Below are positions 4,035 through 16,055 of a DNA stretch of 18,186 bases, in pieces. Origin of the DNA: a virus; the UHGV virus genome UHGV-1600942. The stretch is one strand, 5' to 3'. The notes below the pieces were generated by a model. That model saw nothing but the letters and a program-made list of their open reading frames with translations, did no database searches and had not been told where the DNA came from. The position numbers were made by a program, and so were the translations under genes. Position 1 is the stretch's first letter, and every line of letters starts with the position of its first letter.

Positions 4035-4370
4035 TTACTCCTTCGAGCTACCAAATTTGTTACCGATTACTCGCATTGCAGCCCCACGAATAGCATCGAC
4101 ACCGATCAGCCCCACGCCACCACCAATGGCAACAGAAAGCGATTTAGGCCATCCGACATATTCAAGAGCGGATGCAAAGGTCAGCGTCAGAGCGCCACAT
4201 AGCAAAATCTCGAGCGTTTTTCGCTTCCAGCCACCACCACCGCCAAAATAGGCGATGCGCAAACCAGCCATAACGATCGACATAATCACTGCACCCAGCG
4301 GTGTGTCTCCACGCCACCAGCTCTGAAACAACTCCAGCCAGTCCGGCCAGGTATTTGGGTTATGAGACAT
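4035..4370 (-). CDS. S: Holin, lambda S-like class I
   Basis: Track ORF 4035..4466; likely start MSHNPNTW... at ATG 4368-4370 with GAGGTGA SD. Three hydrophobic segments and a charged C-terminus; sits immediately upstream of R. Confidence 0.8.
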   Translation of the reverse strand: MSHNPNTWPDWLELFQSWWRGDTPLGAVIMSIVMAGLRIAYFGGGGGWKRKTLEILLCGALTLTFASALEYVGWPKSLSVAIGGGVGLIGVDAIRGAAMRVIGNKFGSSKE

Positions 4371-4446: not shown

Positions 4447-5499
4447 TTATTTCCCCACCAGTTCACTTACCTCTTTCACCGTCTGATTAAACCGCTCTGA
4501 CTCAAGTTCAACACCTAACGCCCGACGCCCCAGCGCCATTGCTGCTTTTATTGTGGAACCGGATCCCATAAAGAAATCAGCAACCAGATCACCAGGTCGA
4601 CTACTGGCATTGATTATTTGCCGGAGCATATCCGCCGGTTTCTCGCACGGATGTTTACCCGGGTAGAACTGAACGGGCTTATGCGTCCAGACATCGGTAT
4701 AAGGCACGGAGACTGATACGGAGAAATAGCGCCGGAGAGATTTAAACTCATCCAGCAATTCAGAATATTTGCGATTCAGTGAATCATAAGATGCCACCAG
4801 CTGGTGGTGTGGTTGTTCCAGTTGTTGTTCCTGAAACTTCTCTGCCGCTATACGGGAAAACAGTGCCTGTAACTTCCGATAGTCAGCCTCATTCGGCAAC
4901 TGCCACTGACTGGCACCAAACCAGTGGGAAACCATATTTTTCTTACCTGTGGCTTCGGCAATTTGTTTTGCCGTTATACCCAGTTCGGCACGAGCATCCC
5001 TGAAATACGATATCAGCGGTGCCATTATGTGCTGTTTGAGTTCCCTTTCTTTTGCCGCATAGCCGTCACTTTTGCCGCGATATGGCCCCTGGTAATGTTC
5101 AGCAAACAGAACGCGCTCTGTGGCAGGAAAATATGCGCGCAGACTTTCTTTATTACACCCATTCCAACGTCCGGACGGCTTCGCCCAGATGATATGGTTA
5201 AGCACGTTGAAACGTTCACGCATCATGATCTCAATATCAGATGCCAGGCGATGCCCACAGAACAGGTAAAGGCTTCCGGCAGGTTTCAACACCCGCCAGA
5301 ACTGGGCCAGACAGTGGTCCAGCCACTTAAGGTAATCTTCGTCCCCTTTCCACTGATTGTCCCAACCGTTAGGTTTCACCTTGAAGTAAGGCGGATCGGT
5401 AACAATCAGGTCAATGGAATCATCAGGCAGGGACTGAATAAAATGCAGGCAATCAGCGTTGATTAAATCAACACTGTTTATTTTTACAGTATTTTTCAT
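4447..5499 (-). CDS. Orphan DNA methyltransferase, beta-class (N6-adenine or N4-cytosine)
   Basis: 350 aa with motif IV DPPY (LIVTDPPYF) near the N-terminus and AdoMet-binding FxGxG (FFMGSGST) near the C-terminus. That motif order is the beta-class permutation. No restriction endonuclease partner is present. Confidence 0.85.
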   Translation of the reverse strand: MKNTVKINSVDLINADCLHFIQSLPDDSIDLIVTDPPYFKVKPNGWDNQWKGDEDYLKWLDHCLAQFWRVLKPAGSLYLFCGHRLASDIEIMMRERFNVLNHIIWAKPSGRWNGCNKESLRAYFPATERVLFAEHYQGPYRGKSDGYAAKERELKQHIMAPLISYFRDARAELGITAKQIAEATGKKNMVSHWFGASQWQLPNEADYRKLQALFSRIAAEKFQEQQLEQPHHQLVASYDSLNRKYSELLDEFKSLRRYFSVSVSVPYTDVWTHKPVQFYPGKHPCEKPADMLRQIINASSRPGDLVADFFMGSGSTIKAAMALGRRALGVELESERFNQTVKEVSELVGK

Positions 5500-5649: not shown

Positions 5650-5877
5650 TTACTGGCAGCGTCTGAATTTATTCCCATACCCGCCGTTATCCTTCGCCAG
5701 ACCCGCCAGAACTAACTGAGTCAGTATTAACTGGCACCGGGCTTCGCTTACTCCGGTAGTTCTCGTCATCATGCGTGGCGTTACCCACTTGTCAGCAGGT
5801 AAGAAATGAAGGACTACGGCGGCGGTTTCTGTCATATCTTGCTGTTTTAGCATGTCTTTTTCCCTTCTGGTTAACAT
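5650..5877 (-). CDS. Hypothetical small protein, possible winged-helix regulator
   Basis: 75-aa ORF upstream of and co-oriented with the methyltransferase. Alternative start at M9 has AGAAGGGA SD. HTH-like segment TRTTGVSEARCQLILTQLVLAGL. Confidence 0.45.
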   Translation of the reverse strand: MLTRREKDMLKQQDMTETAAVVLHFLPADKWVTPRMMTRTTGVSEARCQLILTQLVLAGLAKDNGGYGNKFRRCQ

Positions 5878-5975
5878 GACATACCAATAACTCTTGTCTA
5901 AAAAGCCAGCAAGATAAAAAGTCAGTATTCACGACCACCAGCGTGTTTACTGTACTGCACCAAGTTTACAGGTAC

Positions 5976-6000
5976 AAAAAAACCGCTCAGCGGCGGGTTT
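5976..6000. terminator. Candidate tR'-like hairpin flanked by A-run and T-run
   Basis: AAAAAAA-CCGC-tca-GCGG-cgggTTT; reads on the minus strand as hairpin followed by T7. Stem is short (4 bp), so strength is uncertain. Confidence 0.35.
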
Positions 6001-6172
6001 AAGCTGTGTGGCGAAGTAACCACTCTTAACACAGTAATCTAGAAAATGCGGACCGCGTTAGTGATTTTTATCTGTTTTTCCATTATTTTTTTGCCACACA
6101 ACTTAAAACGAAAAATAAAGCAGGCGTTGCCAAACCTCACGGTGACAGTTGGCTTAGAATGAGGACATACTT

Positions 6173-7192
6173 TTGGATAAGTTTGATGAGATTCATGTAG
6201 ACATTGAATCTGAGCAGCAAGCCTTCGATTTGCTTGAAAGCTATCTTGATGGTTATGGTTTACCTGACAGTTTAAGTTTCAACGGATGGCCAAACCTTAC
6301 CATCAGATTAACCGGTGAAAAATTCAACAGATCGCTAACACCTTCAGTTATGAAGGGATTTGTTGAAATGCAAGCTCAAATCAACAAATCATATGCCCTT
6401 GCCAAGTACGGTGTCCCTGACGTCCGCAAACTGACCAAAGAAGAACTTGATGCCCTAGAAATAGAAGTTACGGTAGAACAGGGTTCTTCAATAGTAGAAA
6501 TCAACATTGATGGCTTTTTAACCAAACTCACACAGGAACTTGTTGGTAAAATGAACGCAACTGAGATCATGTTTACTGTTCTCGGCGCAGCAGTCATCTG
6601 GGGCGGAGTAACAGTATTTAAACGGTTCTTGGACAACCGCAAAGATATTCGCCTTGCAGAAATTGCTAAGGATGGAGAGAAAGAACATCTCCGGACTATG
6701 CAGATCATGAGCGAGCAAGAAACTAAACGCCTGCGGGTTATTTCAGAAATGATTGCGGAAAAACCACTTCTCGATAACATGGACCGTATGTCGTATGACG
6801 CTAAAACCCAAATGGTCAAATCCTTTGTGCGTTCAGATAACGCTCAAATTGATGGCGTTACTATTGATTCTGAAATGGCGAAAGAGTTGGTTACGAATGC
6901 TCGTAGACGTTCATCAGAAATGAGGATTGATGGTATTTACCGAATTGAAGAAGTCAATAATACTGACCCAGAGAGTTTCAAAGTTAAGGTCCGACGCGTA
7001 GATACCGACCAACGTCTAACCTGCGTAGTTCAGGATGTTTTCCTTGATGAATCCGGAAACAAAGAAGCATTGCAGCGAGCTGAGTGGGAAAGAAAGCCTG
7101 TACATTTGAGCATTAACGCAAAACACGTCGATGGTGACATTAAGTCAGCAGTAATTCTCTATGTTCGAGATGTGGAACAAAAGCCCGAGTAA
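6173..7192 (+). CDS. Hypothetical 339-aa single-pass membrane protein (AT-rich cargo gene)
   Basis: Long plus-strand ORF on the opposite strand to all flanking phage genes. TTG start at 6173 preceded by GAGGA SD with 7-nt spacer. One hydrophobic segment (EIMFTVLGAAVIWGGVTVF) between an acidic N-terminal domain and a charged C-terminal domain. Visibly lower GC than neighbours. I recognise no family. Confidence 0.7.
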   Translation: MDKFDEIHVDIESEQQAFDLLESYLDGYGLPDSLSFNGWPNLTIRLTGEKFNRSLTPSVMKGFVEMQAQINKSYALAKYGVPDVRKLTKEELDALEIEVTVEQGSSIVEINIDGFLTKLTQELVGKMNATEIMFTVLGAAVIWGGVTVFKRFLDNRKDIRLAEIAKDGEKEHLRTMQIMSEQETKRLRVISEMIAEKPLLDNMDRMSYDAKTQMVKSFVRSDNAQIDGVTIDSEMAKELVTNARRRSSEMRIDGIYRIEEVNNTDPESFKVKVRRVDTDQRLTCVVQDVFLDESGNKEALQRAEWERKPVHLSINAKHVDGDIKSAVILYVRDVEQKPE

Positions 7193-7199
7193 TCGGGCT
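7182..7199. terminator. Hairpin between convergent ORF339 and Q
   Basis: AGCCCGA-gtaa-TCGGGCT; the ORF339 stop codon TAA (7190-7192) lies in the loop and the Q stop is 8 nt away. Confidence 0.4.
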
Positions 7200-7206
7200 T
7201 CAATAA

Positions 7207-7584
7207 TCAATCTTTAACTTCGGGGTCCATCTCTAGACTAATTTCCAACATCGATAGGCAGCCATCAATAAACCCCTCAGCCATCTGTATCTCAATGCGT
7301 ATTAGTTTCTCATCCTTTTTACGAGCCTTGGCGAGCTTTCTTTTAGAGATACCGTATAGGTAATGGGCAACAAGAAGCGAGTGTTCTTCAGGTCTTTTTT
7401 GCTTTAGACGAGCAAGACAACCTTCAATAATTAATGCATCACTATCTGAACAAGCCTGACGTGTTTTGCTTGTATAGGGAAGAAGCCCTTTAAACCCAGC
7501 AGCTATAGGCGAATAGTCTACCCCAGAACTATCACTCGCCGCCCATGCCCCCCAACGATCCAGAACCATCTGAATATCACGCAT
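7207..7584 (-). CDS. Q: Late-gene antiterminator Q (phage 82/21-type)
   Basis: Track ORF 7207..7599 (TTG); likely start MRDIQMVLDRWGAWAA... at ATG 7582-7584 with GGAGA SD. The N-terminal motif matches what I recall for Q antiterminators of lambdoid prophages. Confidence 0.8.
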   Translation of the reverse strand: MRDIQMVLDRWGAWAASDSSGVDYSPIAAGFKGLLPYTSKTRQACSDSDALIIEGCLARLKQKRPEEHSLLVAHYLYGISKRKLAKARKKDEKLIRIEIQMAEGFIDGCLSMLEISLEMDPEVKD

Positions 7585-9817: not shown

Positions 9818-10140
9818 ACTTTCAGGCCTCTCTCATGTAACCAGTGGGCTGCACGCAGCCTGGCGTTTTCCTCACCGGCAAGCAGTGCGCGGATAATCCC
9901 GACCGCCTCGCTGTCGTCGTCCTTCACCGCGGTATGAAGCGTTATCCCCCGGGCCACGCCACGCTTTATCGTGATGACGCCTTTTTTCTCCAGTGCACGA
10001 AGATGCTCTACCGCTGCATTCACTGAACGGTATCCCAGCATGGTTGCCACCTCCTGATTGGTTGGCGGAAAGCCACGCTCTTTCTGGTAAGAAATCAGCA
10101 TATCCAGCACCTGCTGCTGGCATTGAGTTAACGTCGTCAT
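9814..10140 (-). CDS. LexA N-terminal DNA-binding-domain homolog lacking the S24 peptidase domain
   Basis: 108 aa; QQQVLDMLISYQKERGFPPTNQEVATMLGYRSVNAAVEHLRALEKKGVI closely parallels the LexA winged-helix domain. No Ser/Lys protease domain follows. Translationally coupled to flanking genes. Confidence 0.7.
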   Translation of the reverse strand: MTTLTQCQQQVLDMLISYQKERGFPPTNQEVATMLGYRSVNAAVEHLRALEKKGVITIKRGVARGITLHTAVKDDDSEAVGIIRALLAGEENARLRAAHWLHERGLKV

Positions 10141-10790
10141 GCCGCCATCTCCCTGACCAGTTTTTCCGCCTGCTGGCGAACCTGCACCAGAAAGGCTTCA
10201 CCACATGCCTCAAGTTCATCGCGCCCGATGTAGCTGATTGCCGGTCCCTTCCAGGTCTTGTCGAAAACAGCAATAGCACCAGCGAAGAAAGCGCCTGTCG
10301 GCACCTGCTTCTCATCCTTCGGGATAAACCAGGCAGGCAGTTCAAAACCAATACGCCCGCGAATAAAAGCAATATGGTCCGCATCTTCCGGCCACCACAC
10401 TTCGCTGGTGGCAGCTTTGATCAGGAAAACATAGCGCCCGCCCTTATCACGCATGGCACTGGCATGTTTCATGATGTAACGCATGCCGGTGATGTATTGC
10501 CCCTCATGCTGACTGGCGCGGCTGTATGGGGGATTACCAAAGGCAGCACCTTTAAGCTCCGCAAGACGTTCTGACCAGTCATGCGCCAGCGCGTTATCTT
10601 CCGCCGTGTAATACGCGGCACATTTGGCGTTATCACCGTCAGTAAACAGATCCAGAACAAACGGGCCAAACAGGGTGTTAATTCCCCAGAAAATGTTGTC
10701 CGGCGTGCGCCACTGATCGCCCACTTCCTTCAGTTCATGGGCTGGTTTGTTCCGCAATTCCACCAGCGCCTGGCAATATTTATTACTCAT
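10137..10790 (-). CDS. Phage Dam-type N6-adenine DNA methyltransferase
   Basis: Track ORF 10137..10823; likely start MSNKYCQ... at ATG 10788-10790, overlapping the upstream stop. Catalytic NPPY motif (GNPPYS). Confidence 0.85.
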   Translation of the reverse strand: MSNKYCQALVELRNKPAHELKEVGDQWRTPDNIFWGINTLFGPFVLDLFTDGDNAKCAAYYTAEDNALAHDWSERLAELKGAAFGNPPYSRASQHEGQYITGMRYIMKHASAMRDKGGRYVFLIKAATSEVWWPEDADHIAFIRGRIGFELPAWFIPKDEKQVPTGAFFAGAIAVFDKTWKGPAISYIGRDELEACGEAFLVQVRQQAEKLVREMAA

Positions 10791-11284
10791 TAAGCCCCCA
10801 CGTAATTCCCTGACAGATACCACTCTTCACCCGATGCAGCGCGCTTGCTGCTTTTCCGTAAGCACCGCTCACGACGCGCCAGAAAATTGTTTCGTTCTGG
10901 CTGGGAGTGGCTTTCACGGAATGCCGCCATCCACACGGTTGCAGCACGACGGTATAAGCCCATGGACTCCAGTTCTTCAGCCTGGCGGGTCAGGCACAAA
11001 ATCACCCGTGGATCGTTAGTGCCGACATAGAAATTGCGCACAGGTCTGGTTTCTCGAACTGGTTGTGGTTCCGGTTCCTGCGCTCTCTCAGTCAGGCGCG
11101 GGAAATGTCTGCGTGTATCTCCTTCACAACGGTGAGCCACACGCCCACTCTGACGTAACTTGCTTGCTGACTGCAGAACGCGCTGCCGTGAGTAACCTGC
11201 AAAAGCATCCGCAATGTCTCCGGAAGTACATCCCGGATGGGCTTCAATGAATTTCTGAACTTCATTCAAAAGACTCATGATCAC
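10790..11284 (-). CDS. Hypothetical protein with possible N-terminal winged helix
   Basis: 164-aa ORF coupled to the replication initiator upstream (GTG start overlaps its stop; alternative ATG at 11276-11278) and to Dam downstream. Confidence 0.6.
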   Translation of the reverse strand: MIMSLLNEVQKFIEAHPGCTSGDIADAFAGYSRQRVLQSASKLRQSGRVAHRCEGDTRRHFPRLTERAQEPEPQPVRETRPVRNFYVGTNDPRVILCLTRQAEELESMGLYRRAATVWMAAFRESHSQPERNNFLARRERCLRKSSKRAASGEEWYLSGNYVGA

Positions 11285-12570: not shown

Positions 12571-13130
12571 GCGTTAGTTTCTCCACAGTCACGACACGCC
12601 ACGGCGCCCGGAGCTGCACACTCGCGGGCGTCACTACTTTCTGAAACGCAAAAGATTTTGTAGACCAGTGCTGCATGCTCCTGCAGCTTCGAAATTGAGA
12701 GGTACAGCTCATCGTTAATTGCTGTCTTCTCATGCGGTTCCACTACACCGTCTTCAATTGCTGAACGAATCTGTTTTGAATAACTGCCGATCTGTTCAAT
12801 GACTTCCAGCAGGCGTTGGTTGATATCGGCGTTGTCCACATCCTCGACGTCAGGAAGAGACACAAAGACGCCATTTGCAGACTGCGCCACAGCATCAGCA
12901 ATGAAGTGAGTGCCACCAGCACGCTGTAAAACCATTGCCCATCCCAGCGGGAAAATCTGATCGCCATCTGCACGAAGGCGGTTGAATAAAGCGTTTTCTG
13001 TTACATCGAGCCAGTCAGCCGCTTCAGCGTAACCACCCGGCAACGCCGCGATAGTTTTTCTGACAGCTTTCACGTACCACTCAGGCTGTTTTTCTATTTT
13101 CCAGTGATGCTTACCCACGGTTAGCCTCAT
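12567..13130 (-). CDS. Early regulatory protein (CII-like / YdaT-like, tentative)
   Basis: 187-aa ORF directly downstream of cro in the early-right operon. Family call is by position and vague recollection only. Start may be ATG 13130 or GTG at codon 4. Confidence 0.5.
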
Positions 13131-13161
13131 CGTTCTGTGGTTAAAAATTGAAAGTGTTCTG

Positions 13162-13362
13162 CTAATCTTTCGGATAGATATCCGGTCTTAAGTCAGATTT
13201 CGTAATTGCACCTGACGTGCATTGCTCAAGTTTTTTAGCCAGCACAAAACTGGCTTTTTTATAGCCATTGAAAACCAGCCGTAAGTAGCCAGGTGTTGAG
13301 CCAACTTTTCCGGCCAACTCGCCCTGCTGTTCTTTGGTTAAAGAGTCCCAATACGCTTTCAT
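13162..13362 (-). CDS. cro: Cro-like repressor
   Basis: Track ORF 13162..13665 is an over-extension; likely start MKAYWDSLTKEQQ... at ATG 13360-13362 with GGAGG SD. 66 aa, HTH-like (ELAGKVGSTPGYLRLVF), divergent from cI. Confidence 0.75.
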   Translation of the reverse strand: MKAYWDSLTKEQQGELAGKVGSTPGYLRLVFNGYKKASFVLAKKLEQCTSGAITKSDLRPDIYPKD

Positions 13363-13365
13363 ACA

Positions 13366-13388
13366 ATATGTACCTCCGGTGTACATAT
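13366..13388. promoter_or_regulatory. Operator site A (TGTAC-N7-GTACA) overlapping candidate pR -10
   Basis: Perfect palindrome ATATGTAC-ctccggt-GTACATAT. On the minus strand a TAATAT -10 candidate overlaps its left arm and a TTGAAG -35 lies 16 nt upstream. Confidence 0.6.
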
Positions 13389-13416
13389 TACATGATTGAA
13401 ATGAACCTTCAAGATA

Positions 13417-13437
13417 CTTGTACCTTAACGGTACAAG
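13417..13437. promoter_or_regulatory. Operator site B (TGTAC-N7-GTACA) overlapping candidate pRM -35
   Basis: Perfect palindrome CTTGTACC-ttaac-GGTACAAG with the same half-site spacing as site A. Candidate pRM: -35 TTGTAC (13418-13423), 17-nt spacer, -10 TTTAAT (13441-13446), giving a near-leaderless cI mRNA. Confidence 0.55.
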
Positions 13438-13452
13438 GGTTTTAATTTCGTT

Positions 13453-14127
13453 ATGAAAACAATCCATGACATCCGGCGGTCTAACGCCAGAAAACTGAGA
13501 GATGGTGTTGGCGGGAATTCTTCCTTTGCCACTATGATTGATCGCGAGCCAACCCAGACCAGCAGGTTTATGGGAGATGGTGCTACTAAAAATATCGGTG
13601 ACAGCATGGCACGACACATCGAAAAATGTTTCGACCTGCCTGTCGGATGGCTCGATCAAGAACACCAGACAACGAACATCACAAAAAAACCTGATGTTTC
13701 AATCACTAATAAACAAATCACATTAGTCCCTGTCATATCATGGGTACAGGCCGGAGCATGGAAAGAAGTTGGATATTCTGAGGTTGATTTGAGCACAGCA
13801 GAAACGTATCCCTGCCCTGTACCCTGTGGGGAAATGACTTATATCTTGCGGGTGATAGGTGATTCAATGATTGATGAGTACCGCCCGGGAGACATGATTT
13901 TTGTCGATCCTGAAGTACCTGCCTGCCACGGTGACGACGTTATTGCATTGATGCACGATACAGGCGAAACCACCTTCAAAAGGTTGATAGAAGATGGGAC
14001 ACAGCGTTATCTCAAAGCGTTAAACCCAAACTGGCCTGAGCCTTACATTAAGATCAACGGTAATTGCTCTATAATTGGTACAGTGATTTTCTCAGGAAAA
14101 CCAAGAAGATACAAAATCAAAGCCTAA
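13453..14127 (+). CDS. cI: CI-like prophage repressor (HTH + S24 LexA-like autopeptidase)
   Basis: 224 aa; N-terminal HTH region, Ala-Gly cleavage site (WVQAG/AW), and S24 catalytic Ser (VIGDSM) and Lys (FKRL). Confidence 0.9.
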   Translation: MKTIHDIRRSNARKLRDGVGGNSSFATMIDREPTQTSRFMGDGATKNIGDSMARHIEKCFDLPVGWLDQEHQTTNITKKPDVSITNKQITLVPVISWVQAGAWKEVGYSEVDLSTAETYPCPVPCGEMTYILRVIGDSMIDEYRPGDMIFVDPEVPACHGDDVIALMHDTGETTFKRLIEDGTQRYLKALNPNWPEPYIKINGNCSIIGTVIFSGKPRRYKIKA

Positions 14128-14139
14128 TCAATGTTTATG

Positions 14140-14163
14140 AACCTGCTTCGGCAGGTTTTTTTA
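14140..14163 (+). terminator. Rho-independent terminator downstream of cI
   Basis: AACCTGC-ttcg-GCAGGTT (7-bp stem, UUCG tetraloop) followed by TTTTTTT. Confidence 0.8.
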
Positions 14164-14166
14164 TAC

Positions 14167-14194
14167 TTGACAATGTACCTTTGAGATACATAAT
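14167..14194 (+). promoter_or_regulatory. pL-like early-left promoter with embedded operator-like half-sites
   Basis: TTGACA (14167-14172), 16-nt spacer, CATAAT (14189-14194). Spacer contains TGTAC-N7-ATACA (14174-14190), resembling the TGTAC-N7-GTACA operators. Confidence 0.55.
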
Positions 14195-14284
14195 GTACCC
14201 AAGCGAAACAACGAACAGGCAGGACGCCCACGAAGTAGCCGCCTGGGGCATATGAAGTCCAGGATGATTCGTTAGCAACAAAAA

Positions 14285-14317
14285 AGCGCCCTACAGGACG
14301 CTTAGCTCTTTAACAAT
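14285..14317 (+). promoter_or_regulatory. rrn-type antitermination element (boxB-like hairpin + boxA)
   Basis: GCTCTTTAACAAT at 14305-14317 is identical to the 13-nt core of the E. coli rrn boxA (TGCTCTTTAACAATTTATCA) as I recall it. It is preceded by an A-run and a hairpin (AGCGCC-ctaca-GGaCGCT), the same boxB-then-boxA order as rrn leaders. Confidence 0.5.
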
Positions 14318-14361
14318 CTGGTCCCCATCAACAAGTAACTGATAACTTGAGGAGATGTGAA

Positions 14362-14568
14362 ATGCACAAAACAGAACCCAAAATCGTCGCGCCTGGCTAC
14401 ACAGATGAGGAAATTTATGAGTGGATGACAAAGAAGCTGGCAGCTATAAACCAGCTTCGTGAAGTGCTGTCTTATCGACAGGAAACAATAGACTCCTTAA
14501 AAAAACTGGATCAGGAAATCACGGTTTTATCACAGGATGTTACTTTAGATATTGTGCAGACAAATTAG
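14362..14568 (+). CDS. Hypothetical 68-aa protein
   Basis: ATG at 14362 preceded by GAGGAG SD with 7-nt spacer. AT-rich; predicted helical (LAAINQLREVLSYRQETIDSLKKLDQEI). No Arg-rich motif, so not N-like. 3' end overlaps the convergent ORF144 by 29 nt. Confidence 0.45.
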   Translation: MHKTEPKIVAPGYTDEEIYEWMTKKLAAINQLREVLSYRQETIDSLKKLDQEITVLSQDVTLDIVQTN

Positions 14569-14974
14569 GATCCCATTCATTTTCGTCAAAATCATCAAAG
14601 TGATGAATTTGTGATCTCCAGTCTCGATAATCTAAAAATTTCTGGGCGGTTACGCTTATTTTATCAAGTGTGAGTTCATCCTGAATTGAAAGAAGAAGTT
14701 CATCAAATTTCATCTCATTAATCTGTTTTGGCATCCAGTGATGCTTCATCAGAATAAGGTGAACCAGAGCCTTTTTCCCATTCAACTGATTATAGGGAGT
14801 GCCGAATTTCTTCCGGTGCTCATGTAAGACAAGGTCCAAAAGAGTAAGTAATGTTGCCCTTGATTCAACTTTGCTTATTTCGACTGATGACACTACCCCA
14901 CTGATTTCAATGCCCCGATACTTTCCAACATTTTCACAGTGGGATTTGTACAGCGTATAGATATTACCGGACAT
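14540..14974 (-). CDS. Hypothetical 144-aa protein (AT-rich cargo gene beside the immunity region)
   Basis: Minus-strand ORF antisense to the early-left operon. ATG 14972-14974 with AAGGAAAAG SD 6 nt upstream. Low GC; acidic C-terminal tail. I recognise no family. Confidence 0.65.
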   Translation of the reverse strand: MSGNIYTLYKSHCENVGKYRGIEISGVVSSVEISKVESRATLLTLLDLVLHEHRKKFGTPYNQLNGKKALVHLILMKHHWMPKQINEMKFDELLLSIQDELTLDKISVTAQKFLDYRDWRSQIHHFDDFDENEWDPNLSAQYLK

Positions 14975-14990
14975 TTCTTTTCCTTTTGCG

Positions 14991-15038
14991 TTGTTGGGGA
15001 TAACCAGATTAACCGAATCCTTGTTGTTGGGGAATAAC
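14991..15038. repeat. Two direct repeats TTGTTGGGGA(A)TAAC upstream of ORF144
   Basis: Copies at 14991-15004 and 15024-15038 (33-bp period), 17-65 bp upstream of the ORF144 start codon. Confidence 0.4.
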
Positions 15039-15044
15039 TAGGTC

Positions 15045-15490
15045 CACCTCGCCTGATGTGGCTAAAAGCAGGCACATAACAGCTAAGTATTTTCAACCAG
15101 AGAGAATCCTTAGCGTTGTGGTGAATGCGGCTCAGCGCACGCGGGTTAAGGTTGAGGCTGACAGTCGACCTTCTGTGGATACCCACCCGCCTGGTGTGCA
15201 ACCTTCGCCAGGCACCGGGAGGCACCCGGCACCACAACTTTATGCTGTGTGTAGTCCTGGCGGTACCAGTTTGTACCCTTGCTTCCGGCTGGTACCGTCC
15301 TTTTTACAAAACAGAGAAGAGCATCACCGGACGACGGGCTCATAACCCAATCCATCCGGGCGGCTGCCACCGCAGGTGTTCTTCTCTGTTTTGTGGAGAA
15401 ACTAACCGCCCCTACGGGGGCATTTATGGAAATGTAATTGACTCAATAACCGCCGGACGGTGAGGGCTTCCTTTTACCCGAATTCAGCGC
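15045..15490. other. GC-rich, hairpin-dense non-coding segment (candidate structured RNA or protein-binding locus)
   Basis: About 450 bp with no credible ORF. Perfect 15-bp inverted repeat ACAAAACAGAGAAGA (15306-15320) / TCTTCTCTGTTTTGT (15380-15394) around 59 bp; 9-bp inverted repeat CGGTACCAG (15261-15269) / CTGGTACCG (15289-15297); further GC stems (CCGGG/CCCGG, GCCCC/GGGGC). Confidence 0.3.
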
Positions 15491-15518
15491 GGTGCAGCGC
15501 ATATACGTGGAGAACAAA

Positions 15519-16055
15519 ATGTCATTTATTAAAACTTTTTCCGGGAAGCATTTTTATTATGACAGGATAAATAAAGACGACATCGTTATTAACGATATCG
15601 CGGTTTCCCTTTCAAATATCTGTCGCTTTGCAGGACATCTTTCACACTTCTACAGTGTCGCCCAACATGCGGTGCTTTGCAGCCAGCTGGTGCCGCAGGA
15701 ATTTGCTTTTGAAGCTTTAATGCATGATGCAACAGAAGCATATTGCCAGGACATCCCCGCACAACTGAAACGACTTCTTCCTGACTATAAACGGATGGAA
15801 GAAAAAATAGACGCCGTAATCCGTGAGAAATACGGGTTACCTCCTGTTATGAGCACGCCAGTGAAATATGCCGATCTCATTATGCTGGCAACCGAACGCC
15901 GCGATCTCGGGCTTGATGATGGCTCTTTCTGGCCTGTGCTGGAAGGTATCCCGGCAACAGAGATGTTCAACGTGATTCCACTGGCTCCAGGCCATGCCTA
16001 CGGGATGTTTATGGAACGCTTTAACGAATTATCGGAGTTACGCAAATGCGCATGA
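15519..16055 (+). CDS. HD-domain phosphohydrolase (YfdR-like 5'-deoxynucleotidase family)
   Basis: Track ORF 15492..16055; likely start MSFIKTFSGK at ATG 15519 with GGAGA SD. HD motif (ALMHDATEA) and upstream His (FAGHLSHF); 178 aa. Confidence 0.85.
   Translation: MSFIKTFSGKHFYYDRINKDDIVINDIAVSLSNICRFAGHLSHFYSVAQHAVLCSQLVPQEFAFEALMHDATEAYCQDIPAQLKRLLPDYKRMEEKIDAVIREKYGLPPVMSTPVKYADLIMLATERRDLGLDDGSFWPVLEGIPATEMFNVIPLAPGHAYGMFMERFNELSELRKCA

Follow-up and report, generated by a model that had tools for sequence, protein, structure and literature searches.

A convergent two-gene cassette beside the repressor of an SfIV/e14-like prophage as a candidate phage-exclusion or toxin-antidote-like system

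Do two small genes that converge next to the repressor of a temperate phage belong together, and if so, what could they do for the prophage that carries them? The question arises from the viral genome UHGV-1600942, analysed here over its 18,186 nucleotides (the window). Positions 14340-14974 hold a gene coding for 68 aa on the plus strand and another coding for 144 aa on the minus strand. An earlier note, made from the sequence alone, had described the pair as convergent and AT-rich and had proposed a two-component defence or toxin-antitoxin-like module, whose expression would be flipped by transcription from the early-left promoter pL upon induction. The open reading frames and the sequence confirm the pair as described, including its low GC content (0.392, compared to 0.498 for the whole window). 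Both are genes and not chance ORFs, since they belong to conserved families and have pairwise dN/dS values of 0.1-0.5.

The window belongs to an SfIV/e14-like prophage and the cassette is found just downstream of the cI terminator and pL. The YmfK-type cI repressor gene (Peptidase_S24, E=1.5e-26) ends at 14127 and is followed on the plus strand by an intrinsic terminator (14139-14166) made of a GC-rich 8-bp hairpin (14139-14158) and a T-run, which the annotation of SfV places at the same spot after cI. Next to it, at 14167-14199 on the plus strand, there is a pL-type early-left promoter with operator-like ATGTACC repeats. The promoter itself (14167-14194; TTGACA, 16 nt spacer, CATAAT) matches 11 of the 12 consensus positions and is overlapped by TGTACC/GGTACA palindromes that are also present at OR, between cI and cro; pL is repressor-controlled. 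This region is 98.6% identical to that of e14 in E. coli K-12, where ymfJ, the first gene behind pL, is known to be induced late in the SOS response.

BLAST breakpoints against SfV and e14 delimit a replaceable AT-rich cassette, or moron, at 14274-15043 (GC 0.399), with inner breakpoints at 14321 and 14990 when other cassettes are compared. In SfV, e14 and two further loci (L007 and L008) unrelated DNA takes its place between the same flanks, and the same applies to other E. coli prophages, so that the slot beside the repressor is indeed a replaceable accessory site, as the earlier note had supposed by analogy with lambda. The cassette combines a deviant base composition with presence or absence among otherwise near-identical phages, two marks of a moron. 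Of 5426 complete E. coli genomes, 408 (ca. 7.5%) have it over its full length. Its edges are partly common property of the slot. At the left edge a strong intrinsic terminator on the minus strand (14284-14303; AAGCGTCCTGTAGGGCGCTT then TTTTGTTGCT) is common to unrelated cassettes and lies inside the flank shared with L007, and the 5′ region of the large gene is likewise common to unrelated cassettes in this slot.

The statement that neither protein matches a recognisable family has to be corrected, as both belong to named, though uncharacterised, families. The large gene (14540-14974, minus strand; ATG at 14974, stop at 14540) codes for a member of NCBIfam NF033230, the ECs1072 family (157.8 bits against a cut-off of 70, residues 4-144 aligned to model positions 2-142), and of PHROG 5286 (E=1.5e-90, residues 1-144). 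The namesake ECs1072 of strain Sakai matches the profile of the large family with an hhalign probability of 96.9%. The small gene (14362-14568, plus strand, i.e., in the direction of pL; ATG at 14362, stop at 14566-14568) has a longest ORF form of 73 aa starting at a TTG at 14347, and its product matches PHROG 1744 over its full length (E=6e-35, residues 1-68). Both are preceded by the strong Shine-Dalgarno sequences previously noticed, GAGGAG 7 nt upstream of the small-gene ATG and AAGGAA (14980-14985) 5-6 nt upstream of that of the large gene. Neither ORF is a remnant of N or Rex, the outcome that would have undermined the proposal, as both are full-length relative to their families. Of 80 viral contigs closely related to the window, 79 carry the 68-aa ORF intact and the last was unscorable (no start found or contig edge). 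Its dN/dS was 0.22 in the comparison with locus L006 and 0.15-0.5 for the small gene overall. Frameshifted variants of about 80 aa arise at a run of seven A within the small gene (14499-14505, plus strand), where the reading frame shifts in variants P0047, P0052 and P0056 and in the Escherichia albertii locus L005.

Structure prediction and remote-homology searches, suggested earlier as a way to find out more, were run for both proteins and gave helical models and uncharacterised families only. The model of the 144-aa protein is all-helical with eight helices (pLDDT 82, pTM 0.82). The 68-aa protein, acidic (pI 4.8) and devoid of a DNA-binding domain, is predicted to consist of a conserved N-terminal tail of 14 residues followed by a single helix of 45 residues (15-59, pLDDT 86). 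Both proteins are hydrophilic and acidic (GRAVY -0.5), have neither signal peptide nor membrane segment and, judged by these features, are expected to be soluble. Within the alignment of 37 sequences of the main large family, H72 and W134 are invariant and W80 nearly so; the remote Sakai member does not keep all of these three, which weakens the case for an enzymatic site. On the model of the large protein, H72 and W80 share a face with the conserved R54. The small partners share the N-terminal motif (E/Q)PY(F/I)(F/Y)NPG..E.LE.WL, and the 68-aa protein conforms to the looser version (E/Q)P..(N/A)PG...E.(L/I).(D/E)W followed by the long helix; M1, P6 and W21 are invariant when it is aligned with partners from other clades.

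We searched Pfam, PADLOC and NCBIfam with both proteins, 37 family members and the proteins of the alternative cassettes, and obtained only the two hypothetical families. The profile of the small family retrieved 130 proteins, all of them annotated as hypothetical. None of the 5027 PADLOC models matched either protein, the large-family profile found nothing among the PDB sequences, and the small-family profile found there only designed coiled coils, a match of composition. Over PADLOC, Pfam, PDB and BFVD neither protein had similarity to a known defence, exclusion or toxin protein, and nothing in these searches links the pair to a known defence or toxin-antitoxin family. Two names recurred among the non-significant structural hits and were rejected. 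The HEPN identity fails because the family does not conserve the Rx4-6H motif (only ca. 60% of the members have R or K at position 67) and TM-scores are around 0.2, and the Bcl-2-like hits also had TM-scores of ca. 0.2.

The clearest result of the comparison, and the new one, is that the two genes form a single mobile accessory cassette of temperate Enterobacterales phages. Among about 40 sequence variants, diverging down to ca. 22-35% identity, in Enterobacterales prophages, the large gene is nearly always accompanied by a convergent, 3′-overlapping small partner, and nearly all of about 50 loci have a convergent small partner carrying the N-terminal motif. Relatives are found in prophages of Salmonella, Klebsiella, Citrobacter, Enterobacter, Serratia, Yersinia, Photorhabdus and Xenorhabdus. 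The divergence of the large protein is correlated with that of the small one (rho 0.87) and both are under purifying selection (pairwise dN/dS 0.1-0.5). Three genomic slots are occupied: behind pL next to cI (this window and loci L130-137), between Q (PF06530) and the holin gene, where the copy of ST64B is located, and in the pR operon between cII-like and O-like genes in Sakai Sp4. Whichever slot is occupied, the lytic operon runs in the direction of the small gene and against that of the large one. The genes were convergent in every locus examined, and the upstream flanks carry ORFs on the strand of the small gene in 34 of 37 cases. Co-occurrence and co-divergence in three slots thus uphold the idea of a functional pair.

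These data also bear on whether the 68-aa ORF might be unlinked to its neighbour, either as just another early-left gene or as a by-product ORF that would serve only to keep ribosomes on the operon mRNA across the antisense cargo. Its C-terminal part varies in length and in most clades is constrained by the C-terminal codons of the large gene on the opposite strand, and translation across an antisense insert could lower Rho-dependent polarity in phages lacking an N homologue. However, members of one small-protein family are found beside the large gene in three operons of unrelated context and down to ca. 22-35% identity, and the conserved part of the protein is precisely its N-terminal 55 residues, which lie outside the overlap, with dN/dS of 0.15-0.5. 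We regard independence of the two genes as very improbable.

The association is not without exceptions. Locus L004 has an intact large gene and no small partner (searching the E. coli genomes for this variant gave short flank matches only), L005, L130 and L131 have an intact large gene next to a disrupted partner, and overall disruption of either gene is found beside an intact copy of the other. The singly disrupted copies and the orphan argue against strict toxin-antitoxin addiction. The corresponding explanation would be a protein-protein system in which the 144-aa product is a growth-arresting toxin and the 68-aa product a labile antitoxin, either stabilising the prophage or firing once the host's transcription has been shut down. 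Such a system would fit the pairing of a larger, better conserved protein with one that is small, acidic, helical and partly unstructured, as well as the similar co-expression levels in ST64B lysogens (see below) and the presence, among the best although non-significant Foldseek hits, of HEPN toxins from MNT-HEPN systems. Against this, the genes are convergent rather than arranged as an autoregulated bicistronic operon, the smaller product lacks a DNA-binding domain, the HEPN assignment fails as explained above and, where the cassette is found in a pL or pR operon, the small gene sits behind a repressor-controlled promoter, which would leave the large protein unopposed in lysogens. A classical toxin-antitoxin system is for these reasons weakly disfavoured, and we think it quite unlikely.

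The fixed geometry extends to the transcripts. As originally reported, the coding 3′ ends overlap by 29 nt (14540-14568); the overlap ranged from 29 to 194 nt across the loci compared, being 71 nt in ST64B, and reaches 317 nt in Sakai. The first terminator-like hairpin available to the transcript of the large gene is a 9-bp stem on the minus strand (14433-14458), embedded in the small-gene codons for KKLAAINQLR. An equivalent hairpin was present within 150 nt of the large-gene stop in 25 of 37 variants, for an expectation from shuffled sequences of 0.05 per locus, and usually falls inside the codons of the conserved helix of the small protein. The two terminators of the large gene in the window (14458-14433 and 14303-14284) are located 80 and 235 nt inside or beyond the small gene, while transcripts from pL would have to cross the large gene to reach the yfdR-like gene (at 15492, after a truncated yfdP, among the early-left genes). 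Since each terminator is situated beyond the 3′ end of the partner, the convergent transcripts should overlap, and the arrangement is predicted to produce transcripts reaching into the oppositely oriented neighbour, i.e., an excludon.

Such an architecture could be regulatory and intrinsic to the prophage, with no role against other phages: the large protein, or antisense transcription, would damp leaky lytic transcription at pL, pR or pR′, and the small protein or its transcript would relieve the brake, tuning the choice between lysis and lysogeny or the timing of the lytic operon. The cassette is always directly downstream of a major lytic promoter and in a fixed polarity, the transcripts are predicted to overlap as just described, and the ymfI-ymfJ pair that fills the same slot in e14 was scored as a convergent excludon by RNA-seq. 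On the other hand, close relatives have no cassette or have unrelated ones, as one expects of accessory cargo rather than of core regulation, and the purifying selection and conserved motifs in both proteins would not be explained by interference at the RNA level alone. Overall, we judge a purely regulatory pair rather unlikely.

Published expression data for relatives indicate when the large gene is used. In ST64B, the homologue of the large gene is STMMW_20121 and that of the small gene is STMMW_20131 (profile E=5e-38 and 2e-38, respectively). In RNA-seq of ST64B lysogens their median TPM values were 113 and 93, compared to 3.7 for the adjacent holin gene, and STMMW_20121 has its own promoter and transcription start, antisense to the lytic genes (Owen et al., 2020). 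The partner (sb50 or STMMW_20131) had not been recognised as part of the ST64B unit. In one of 17 conditions the ST64B large gene was down to 4.9 TPM, a condition taken to be late stationary phase on an assumed order of the data columns. ECs1072 of Sakai was detected in uninduced cultures and fell more than 4-fold at entry into stationary phase, matching the drop in ST64B insofar as the condition of the latter has been assigned correctly. In short, relatives growing as lysogens transcribe the large gene from a start of its own and shut it down in stationary phase. A literature search with the protein accessions, ECs1072, STMMW_20121 and sb50 retrieved no functional study.

The promoter proposed for the 144-aa gene is accordingly borne out in relatives, by the ST64B start and the detection of ECs1072 in uninduced cells, but no convincing sigma-70 promoter was found upstream of the gene in the window. 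Its 5′ region (14975-15043, minus strand), as defined by an alignment of upstream regions, contains two direct repeats, GTTAT(T)CCCCAACAAC, at 14990-15004 and 15023-15038. The extended -10 element located 33-36 nt upstream of the large-gene start in other clades is absent here.

The growth-phase-dependent expression in two independent data sets could also speak for lysogenic conversion, that is, for a large protein acting on host physiology (stress, growth phase or virulence) with the small one as its modulator. The SfIV authors proposed ORF35/36 for virulence studies, and the cassette occurs in pathogens and commensals alike. Nevertheless, both proteins are hydrophilic and devoid of signal peptides and membrane segments, and an effect on the host would account neither for the fixed polarity nor for a partner tied to lytic transcription. 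We consider this explanation unlikely.

The reading that we favour, putative and with a probability of roughly 40%, is that the large protein is an exclusion-type effector expressed in the lysogen and the small protein its cognate partner or neutraliser. In the lysogen the 144-aa protein would be made and the 68-aa gene would be silent because it depends on pL, which is repressed by cI. The effector might then interfere with the development of phages, by superinfection exclusion or abortive infection. Upon induction, transcription from pL would both yield the small protein, acidic and helical, and run antisense through the large gene, leaving both mRNAs complementary over at least ca. 135 nt, and the small protein would bind or neutralise the large one. 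Having the small gene in the lytic operon, the phage that carries the cassette would be spared when going lytic. The predicted shapes of the proteins are compatible with an effector and a helical binder. The clean flip on induction proposed in the earlier note does not hold in general, as the copy of ST64B in the Q-holin slot transcribes both genes in lysogens and its large gene does not fall under inducing stress; given this co-transcription, an antidote made only on induction cannot be the general rule.

A more ambitious version of the exclusion reading would make the cassette a new family of prophage immunity, in which self-immunity is provided by polarity: a soluble effector of new fold, encoded backwards in a lytic operon and expressed in lysogens, would abort or exclude incoming phages, and a dedicated protein antidote would be encoded forwards in that operon, across the 3′ end and terminator of the effector gene, with entry into the lytic cycle switching the effector off at the RNA and protein levels, in a design portable between pL, pR and pR′ operons. 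We hold this extension to be doubtful. On these data the cassette is a good though unproven candidate for a new system of phage exclusion, or for one resembling a toxin and its antidote.

The logic of the exclusion reading would resemble that of sieB/esc/sas of P22 (also in lambda and Rac), with the difference that the antidote would be a separate protein from the opposite strand. SieB, with ca. 190 aa, is a membrane protein, and Esc is made in frame from an internal part of sieB; in the original P22 work sieB was reportedly antisense to the pL operon and sas derived from the pL transcript. Like the large gene, sieB is embedded in the early-left region; it is an exclusion gene expressed from the prophage. 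It is countered in the carrying phage by the antisense RNA sas and the inhibitor protein Esc (PMC12197685, PMC7067206), and rac sieB-ydaF behaves as a convergent excludon in RNA-seq. In contrast, both proteins of the module are predicted to be soluble and have no detectable similarity to that system. Exclusion genes antisense to lytic operons have several precedents (PMC7067206, PMC12197685, PMC9936078).

The e14 genes ymfJ and ymfI occupy exactly the same slot, with flanks 98.6% identical through cI and pL and 89% on the far side, and there too a small gene in the direction of pL converges on an antisense gene, with an overlap of 63 nt and overlapping transcripts in RNA-seq. Homology of the module to YmfJ/YmfI was considered and rejected (hhalign probability 0.1%, nothing by BLASTP). 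A comparable layout is found in the Pseudomonas phage Fc02, in which olg1 and gene 10, located next to the repressor, overlap while lying on opposite strands. Transcription of one takes place in the lysogen and that of the other comes from the lytic operon, and both are reported to give superinfection exclusion. The likeness is one of gene layout; Fc02 is Mu-like, infects another host and differs in the geometry of the overlap, having an additional same-strand overlap with a third gene. In lambda, rexAB is also a two-gene exclusion system expressed in lysogens and adjoining cI, in an analogous slot, but its genes share both strand and transcript with cI, RexB is located in the membrane and there is no sequence similarity.

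With morons such as lambda bor, ST64B STMMW_20121 and BTP1 bstA the cassette shares low GC, patchy presence, a predicted terminator of its own and, in relatives, transcription in the lysogen, whereas the classic ones are described as single transcription units and here an oppositely oriented partner travels with the cargo. The module resembles type II toxin-antitoxin systems in pairing a small acidic helical protein with a larger conserved one and in being mobile, prophage-borne and, in one context, co-expressed. It differs from them in that its genes are convergent and not an operon, its small protein is without DNA-binding domain, neither protein has toxin homology, and orphan and singly disrupted copies occur. 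Type I systems of the hok/sok kind differ too, as the products of the module are both hydrophilic and acidic and conserved proteins are encoded on both strands.

Two hypothetical proteins thereby become a defined and testable unit, with fixed geometry, fixed polarity and homologues expressed in lysogens. BstA, highlighted in the same transcriptomic study as the ST64B homologue, reportedly acts by abortive infection with self-immunity. If the cassette is an exclusion system, it would provide a new effector fold and a new coupling of immunity to the state of the prophage itself; if it regulates induction, it would matter for how stable prophages with serotype-conversion and Shiga-toxin genes are. 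The repressor-proximal slot, whose flanks are conserved and which accommodates at least five interchangeable cassettes (ymfJ/ymfI of E. coli K-12 among them), is itself a natural place to mine for further accessory genes.

Beyond the cassette, the conserved block at 15044-15125, a possible place for a promoter of the 144-aa gene, could equally serve the yfdP-like gene on the plus strand. This early-left gene (15125-15463), outside the module and mentioned as context, is truncated by comparison with SfIV. A GC-rich, ORF-poor stretch at 15000-15460 had been considered as a structured RNA and was rejected, and an Rfam scan of the whole window at gathering thresholds gave no RNA family. The stretch is what a deletion of 1292 bp (junction at 15408-15419) left of yfdP and yfdQ, now fused; it truncated the former and removed the latter. 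The equivalent yfdP ORF of E. coli strain 165 is marked as frameshifted in RefSeq.

The convergent gene pair was found where the earlier note had placed it, as a 68-aa ORF running on the plus strand from an ATG at 14362 to 14568 (the small gene) and a 144-aa ORF running on the minus strand from 14974 to 14540 (the large gene). The two overlap by 29 nt, each has a good ribosome-binding site, and the GC content of the pair and its cassette is low (0.39–0.40 vs. 0.50 for the window). Identity to Shigella phage SfIV is 98% over 13400–15600, and large parts also match SfV, phage cdtI, Stx2c phages and E. coli prophages. The immunity region is of the lambdoid type, with an S24/LexA-type repressor (13453–14127, plus strand), a minus-strand YdaS-like cro and a CII/CP76-like gene, and over 13000–14276 the window is 98.6% identical to the e14 cryptic prophage of E. 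coli K-12 (ymfL-ymfT-ymfK). Directly 3′ of the repressor gene lie an intrinsic terminator (14139–14158) and then a plus-strand promoter (14167–14194) matching 11 of 12 consensus positions. TGTACC-type palindromes overlap this promoter and are also found between cI and cro, and therefore we identify it as the early-left pL. The first gene behind the equivalent promoter of e14 is ymfJ, which is induced late in the SOS response. Downstream of the cassette in the pL direction there is a truncated yfdP-like ORF (15125–15463) followed by yfdR-, yfdS- and yfdT-like genes. Compared with SfIV, 1292 bp are missing from the window through a deletion at a 12-bp microhomology (15408–15419), which took away the whole of yfdQ (DUF2303) together with the 3′ end of yfdP and left a fused 112-aa ORF. 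This deletion explains the GC-rich stretch poor in ORFs at 15000–15460 and rules it out as an RNA element. E. coli strain 165 has a matching arrangement, with yfdQ missing and the yfdP-like ORF annotated as frameshifted.

The site between cI-pL and the early-left genes is a cassette-exchange slot, which supports the idea of a moron beside the repressor. Similarity to SfV and e14 ends at ca. 14274 and restarts at 15044. SfV carries here orf33 and a terminator, while in the identical slot of e14 (L010, 5498–6085) we found ymfJ and ymfI, convergent and overlapping by 63 nt. Two further E. coli prophages hold unrelated minus-strand genes of 171 and 167 aa. The five cargoes are unrelated to one another by sequence comparison and hhalign, and none of them matched the defence models. 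The convergent overlapping geometry at this slot may have been selected independently of the cargo, ymfJ/ymfI being unrelated in sequence to the pair studied here. The flanks that the window has in common with the 171-aa and 167-aa cassettes reach 14321 and 14990 and contain a strong minus-strand terminator (14303–14284). They also take in ca. 70 nt ahead of the minus-strand gene. Two direct repeats GTTAT(T)CCCCAACAAC lie there, just upstream of the antisense gene (14990–15038, minus strand, spaced 33–34 nt start to start). The repeats are kept in four compared loci (L004, L006, L007 and L008), upstream of unrelated cassette genes as well as of divergent module copies, and may act as a binding site or as a promoter element of an unconventional kind. 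The full-length cassette of the window was present in 408 of 5426 complete E. coli genomes.

The earlier note recognised no family for either protein; both do match families, though these are uncharacterized. For the 144-aa protein the search hit NCBIfam NF033230, "ECs1072 family phage-associated protein," at 157.8 bits, above its cut-off of 70, and also PHROG 5286, and the 68-aa protein matches PHROG 1744; Pfam and PADLOC gave no match for either. The SfIV paper lists the two genes as ORF35/36 with "no clear function," and the literature searched reports no functional test of any member of the module. A profile search of 1.8 billion representative proteins retrieved 76 relatives of the large protein, and those appearing full-length were mostly single-domain proteins of about 145–155 aa. 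Over an alignment of 37 sequences H72 and W134 were invariant and L46, L50, R54, L64, G66, A69 and W80 nearly so. A weak HEPN-like lead, raised by an (R/K)x4H motif at 67–72 and by HEPN toxins among non-significant Foldseek hits, failed on both conservation and structural scores. The small-protein profile collected 130 database clusters, all annotated as hypothetical, from Citrobacter, Salmonella, Klebsiella, Enterobacter, Kluyvera, Serratia, Pantoea, Yersinia, Photorhabdus and Xenorhabdus. The protein is acidic and is predicted to have a conserved N-terminal segment of 14 residues followed by a single helix of 45 residues (pLDDT 86). Its gene contains an A7 run (14499–14505) that is the exact frame-shift point of many database variants and of the E. 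albertii locus L005, giving an 80-aa product. Its tail, ..GSHSFSSKSSK, shares its relative frame with the longer tails found in other clades (..LSFPYSSSP..). The shift could be a sequencing error, or genuine slippage or phase variation.

The key result is that the large and the small gene are one module, in agreement with the two-component nature proposed before. In the metagenomic locus L006, whose large protein is 52% identical, the convergent ORF encodes 66 aa, 53% identical to the 68-aa protein. A Serratia homologue (35% identity) sits at a different site, between the lysis genes and a Q-like gene, and again has a convergent overlapping small ORF, starting MDKNEPYFFNPDLSSEQLEDWL where the window has MHKTEPKIVAPGYTDEEIYEWM. 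Among 44 additional, diverse viral contigs and the remaining loci retrieved, nearly every large gene had a convergent partner bearing this N-terminal motif, with an overlap of 29–194 nt. The exceptions were a large gene without partner (L004), disrupted small partners (L005, L130 and L131) and truncated large genes beside an intact small one (L119, L124 and L125). For both genes dN/dS was 0.1–0.5, and the divergences of the two proteins were correlated (rho 0.87).

The module occupies three slots with a single polarity. The first is cI-pL (the window and the clade L130–137), the second has the antiterminator Q (PF06530) on one side and the genes for holin and endolysin on the other, and the third is in the pR operon of prophage Sp4 of E. 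coli O157:H7 Sakai (module at 4168–4816 of L140). There the family namesake ECs1072 (now ECs_5703) is antisense, between a cII-like gene and an O-like replication gene, and overlaps by 317 nt an unannotated convergent ORF of ca. 169 aa that begins MSNDKKLTLSVYENSPHIWRGGLSDVELAEWL. H72 and W80 are substituted in this remote member. Whichever of the three slots is occupied, the small gene reads with the lytic operon around it and the large gene against it. The strand of the small gene carries the flanking ORFs in 34 of 37 upstream flanks, and the exceptions in the downstream flanks are mostly due to the divergent pR operon beyond cI. One Q-slot clade (L108–L114) has an extra ORF of ca. 135 aa immediately upstream of the large gene (ca. 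400 nt upstream, same strand), which may represent a third gene added to the antisense unit.

Of 37 variants, 25 have a terminator-like hairpin within 150 nt past the large gene's stop, whereas shuffled sequence gives 0.05 per locus. It sits inside the small gene, in the codons of a conserved helix motif (EKAALEERL in most clades; KKLAAINQLR in the window, at 14458–14433), so that one DNA segment serves as terminator on one strand and encodes a conserved peptide on the other. An extended −10 (TGnTATyxT) precedes the large gene's start by 33–36 nt in the L130–137 clade and in most clades of the Q slot. The window's clade lacks it, and a convincing promoter for the 144-aa gene was not found in the window.

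That the antisense gene is expressed independently, as proposed from the window, is supported by its homologues. By tblastn we located the module in Salmonella phage ST64B (L138, NC_004313.1, 2345–3068), between the Q-like sb49 and the holin sb51, where a 144-aa ORF missing from the phage annotation converges on sb50. The large and small proteins match the family profiles with E = 5e-38 and 2e-38, and the annotated sb50 (119 aa) probably begins too far upstream, the likely product being 85 aa long and starting MQDGKQQPYFFNPG. The counterparts in S. Typhimurium D23580, STMMW_20121 (435 bp) and STMMW_20131 (360 bp), overlap by 71 nt as in ST64B. STMMW_20121 had been picked out as a candidate accessory locus with its own promoter, antisense to lytic genes and transcribed in almost all conditions (Owen et al., 2020). 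The table of the same study gives median TPM values of 113 for the large gene, 93 for the small gene and 3.7 for the adjacent holin, with 1.5–7.3 for the Q-like gene. The large gene drops to 4.9 TPM in one condition, late stationary phase if the column order is as we assume. A microarray study of uninduced Sakai cultures independently recorded a decrease of more than 4-fold in ECs1072 as the cells entered stationary phase. Therefore, the large gene is lysogen-expressed and growth-phase-regulated in two distant members. The small gene of ST64B is also transcribed in lysogens, plausibly from a pR′-like promoter immediately past Q that fits the consensus at 10 of 12 positions; a terminator precedes the holin gene. 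Under the oxidative stresses that induce ST64B it rose to 148–258 TPM, with the large gene near its median (Owen et al., 2020).

The small gene of the window has no visible promoter of its own and should therefore be expressed as pL is, silent in the lysogen and active once the prophage is induced, and transcripts from pL would have to traverse the large gene in antisense to reach yfdR. The flip in expression by pL read-through put forward in the earlier note is thus plausible as a state-dependent switch in the window and in the pR slot; it is not universal to the module, since both genes are on together in the Q-holin slot. A strict toxin-antitoxin reading is disfavoured by the convergent genes, the orphan and singly disrupted copies, the lack of any detectable toxin or antitoxin domain, and the repressor control of the small gene in two of the three slots. 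The analysis establishes that the pair forms a mobile and conserved accessory cassette of two genes, whose polarity is fixed and whose terminator has a dual use. We infer that the large protein may be a lysogen-expressed effector interfering with phage development, to which the lytic operon would supply a cognate partner or neutralizer in the form of the small helical protein. Alternatively, the module may only regulate the lysis-lysogeny behaviour of the phage that carries it, or may serve a host-directed conversion function. In logic the closest precedents are P22 sieB/esc/sas and the overlapping exclusion genes of Pseudomonas phage Fc02. In anatomy the closest is e14 ymfJ/ymfI, in the very same slot, a pair that RNA-seq scores as a convergent excludon.

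Elsewhere in the window there is a type II DNA methyltransferase gene (4447–5499, minus strand; PADLOC MTase_II, E = 1.6e-152). Divergent from it, and antisense to the surrounding right operon, an AT-rich ORF of 339 aa (6173–7192, plus strand) lies within an AT-rich island at about 5850–7350. It matched no family and may be the cognate restriction endonuclease or another moron. A second methylase gene, of the Dam type, is found at 10137–10823 on the minus strand.
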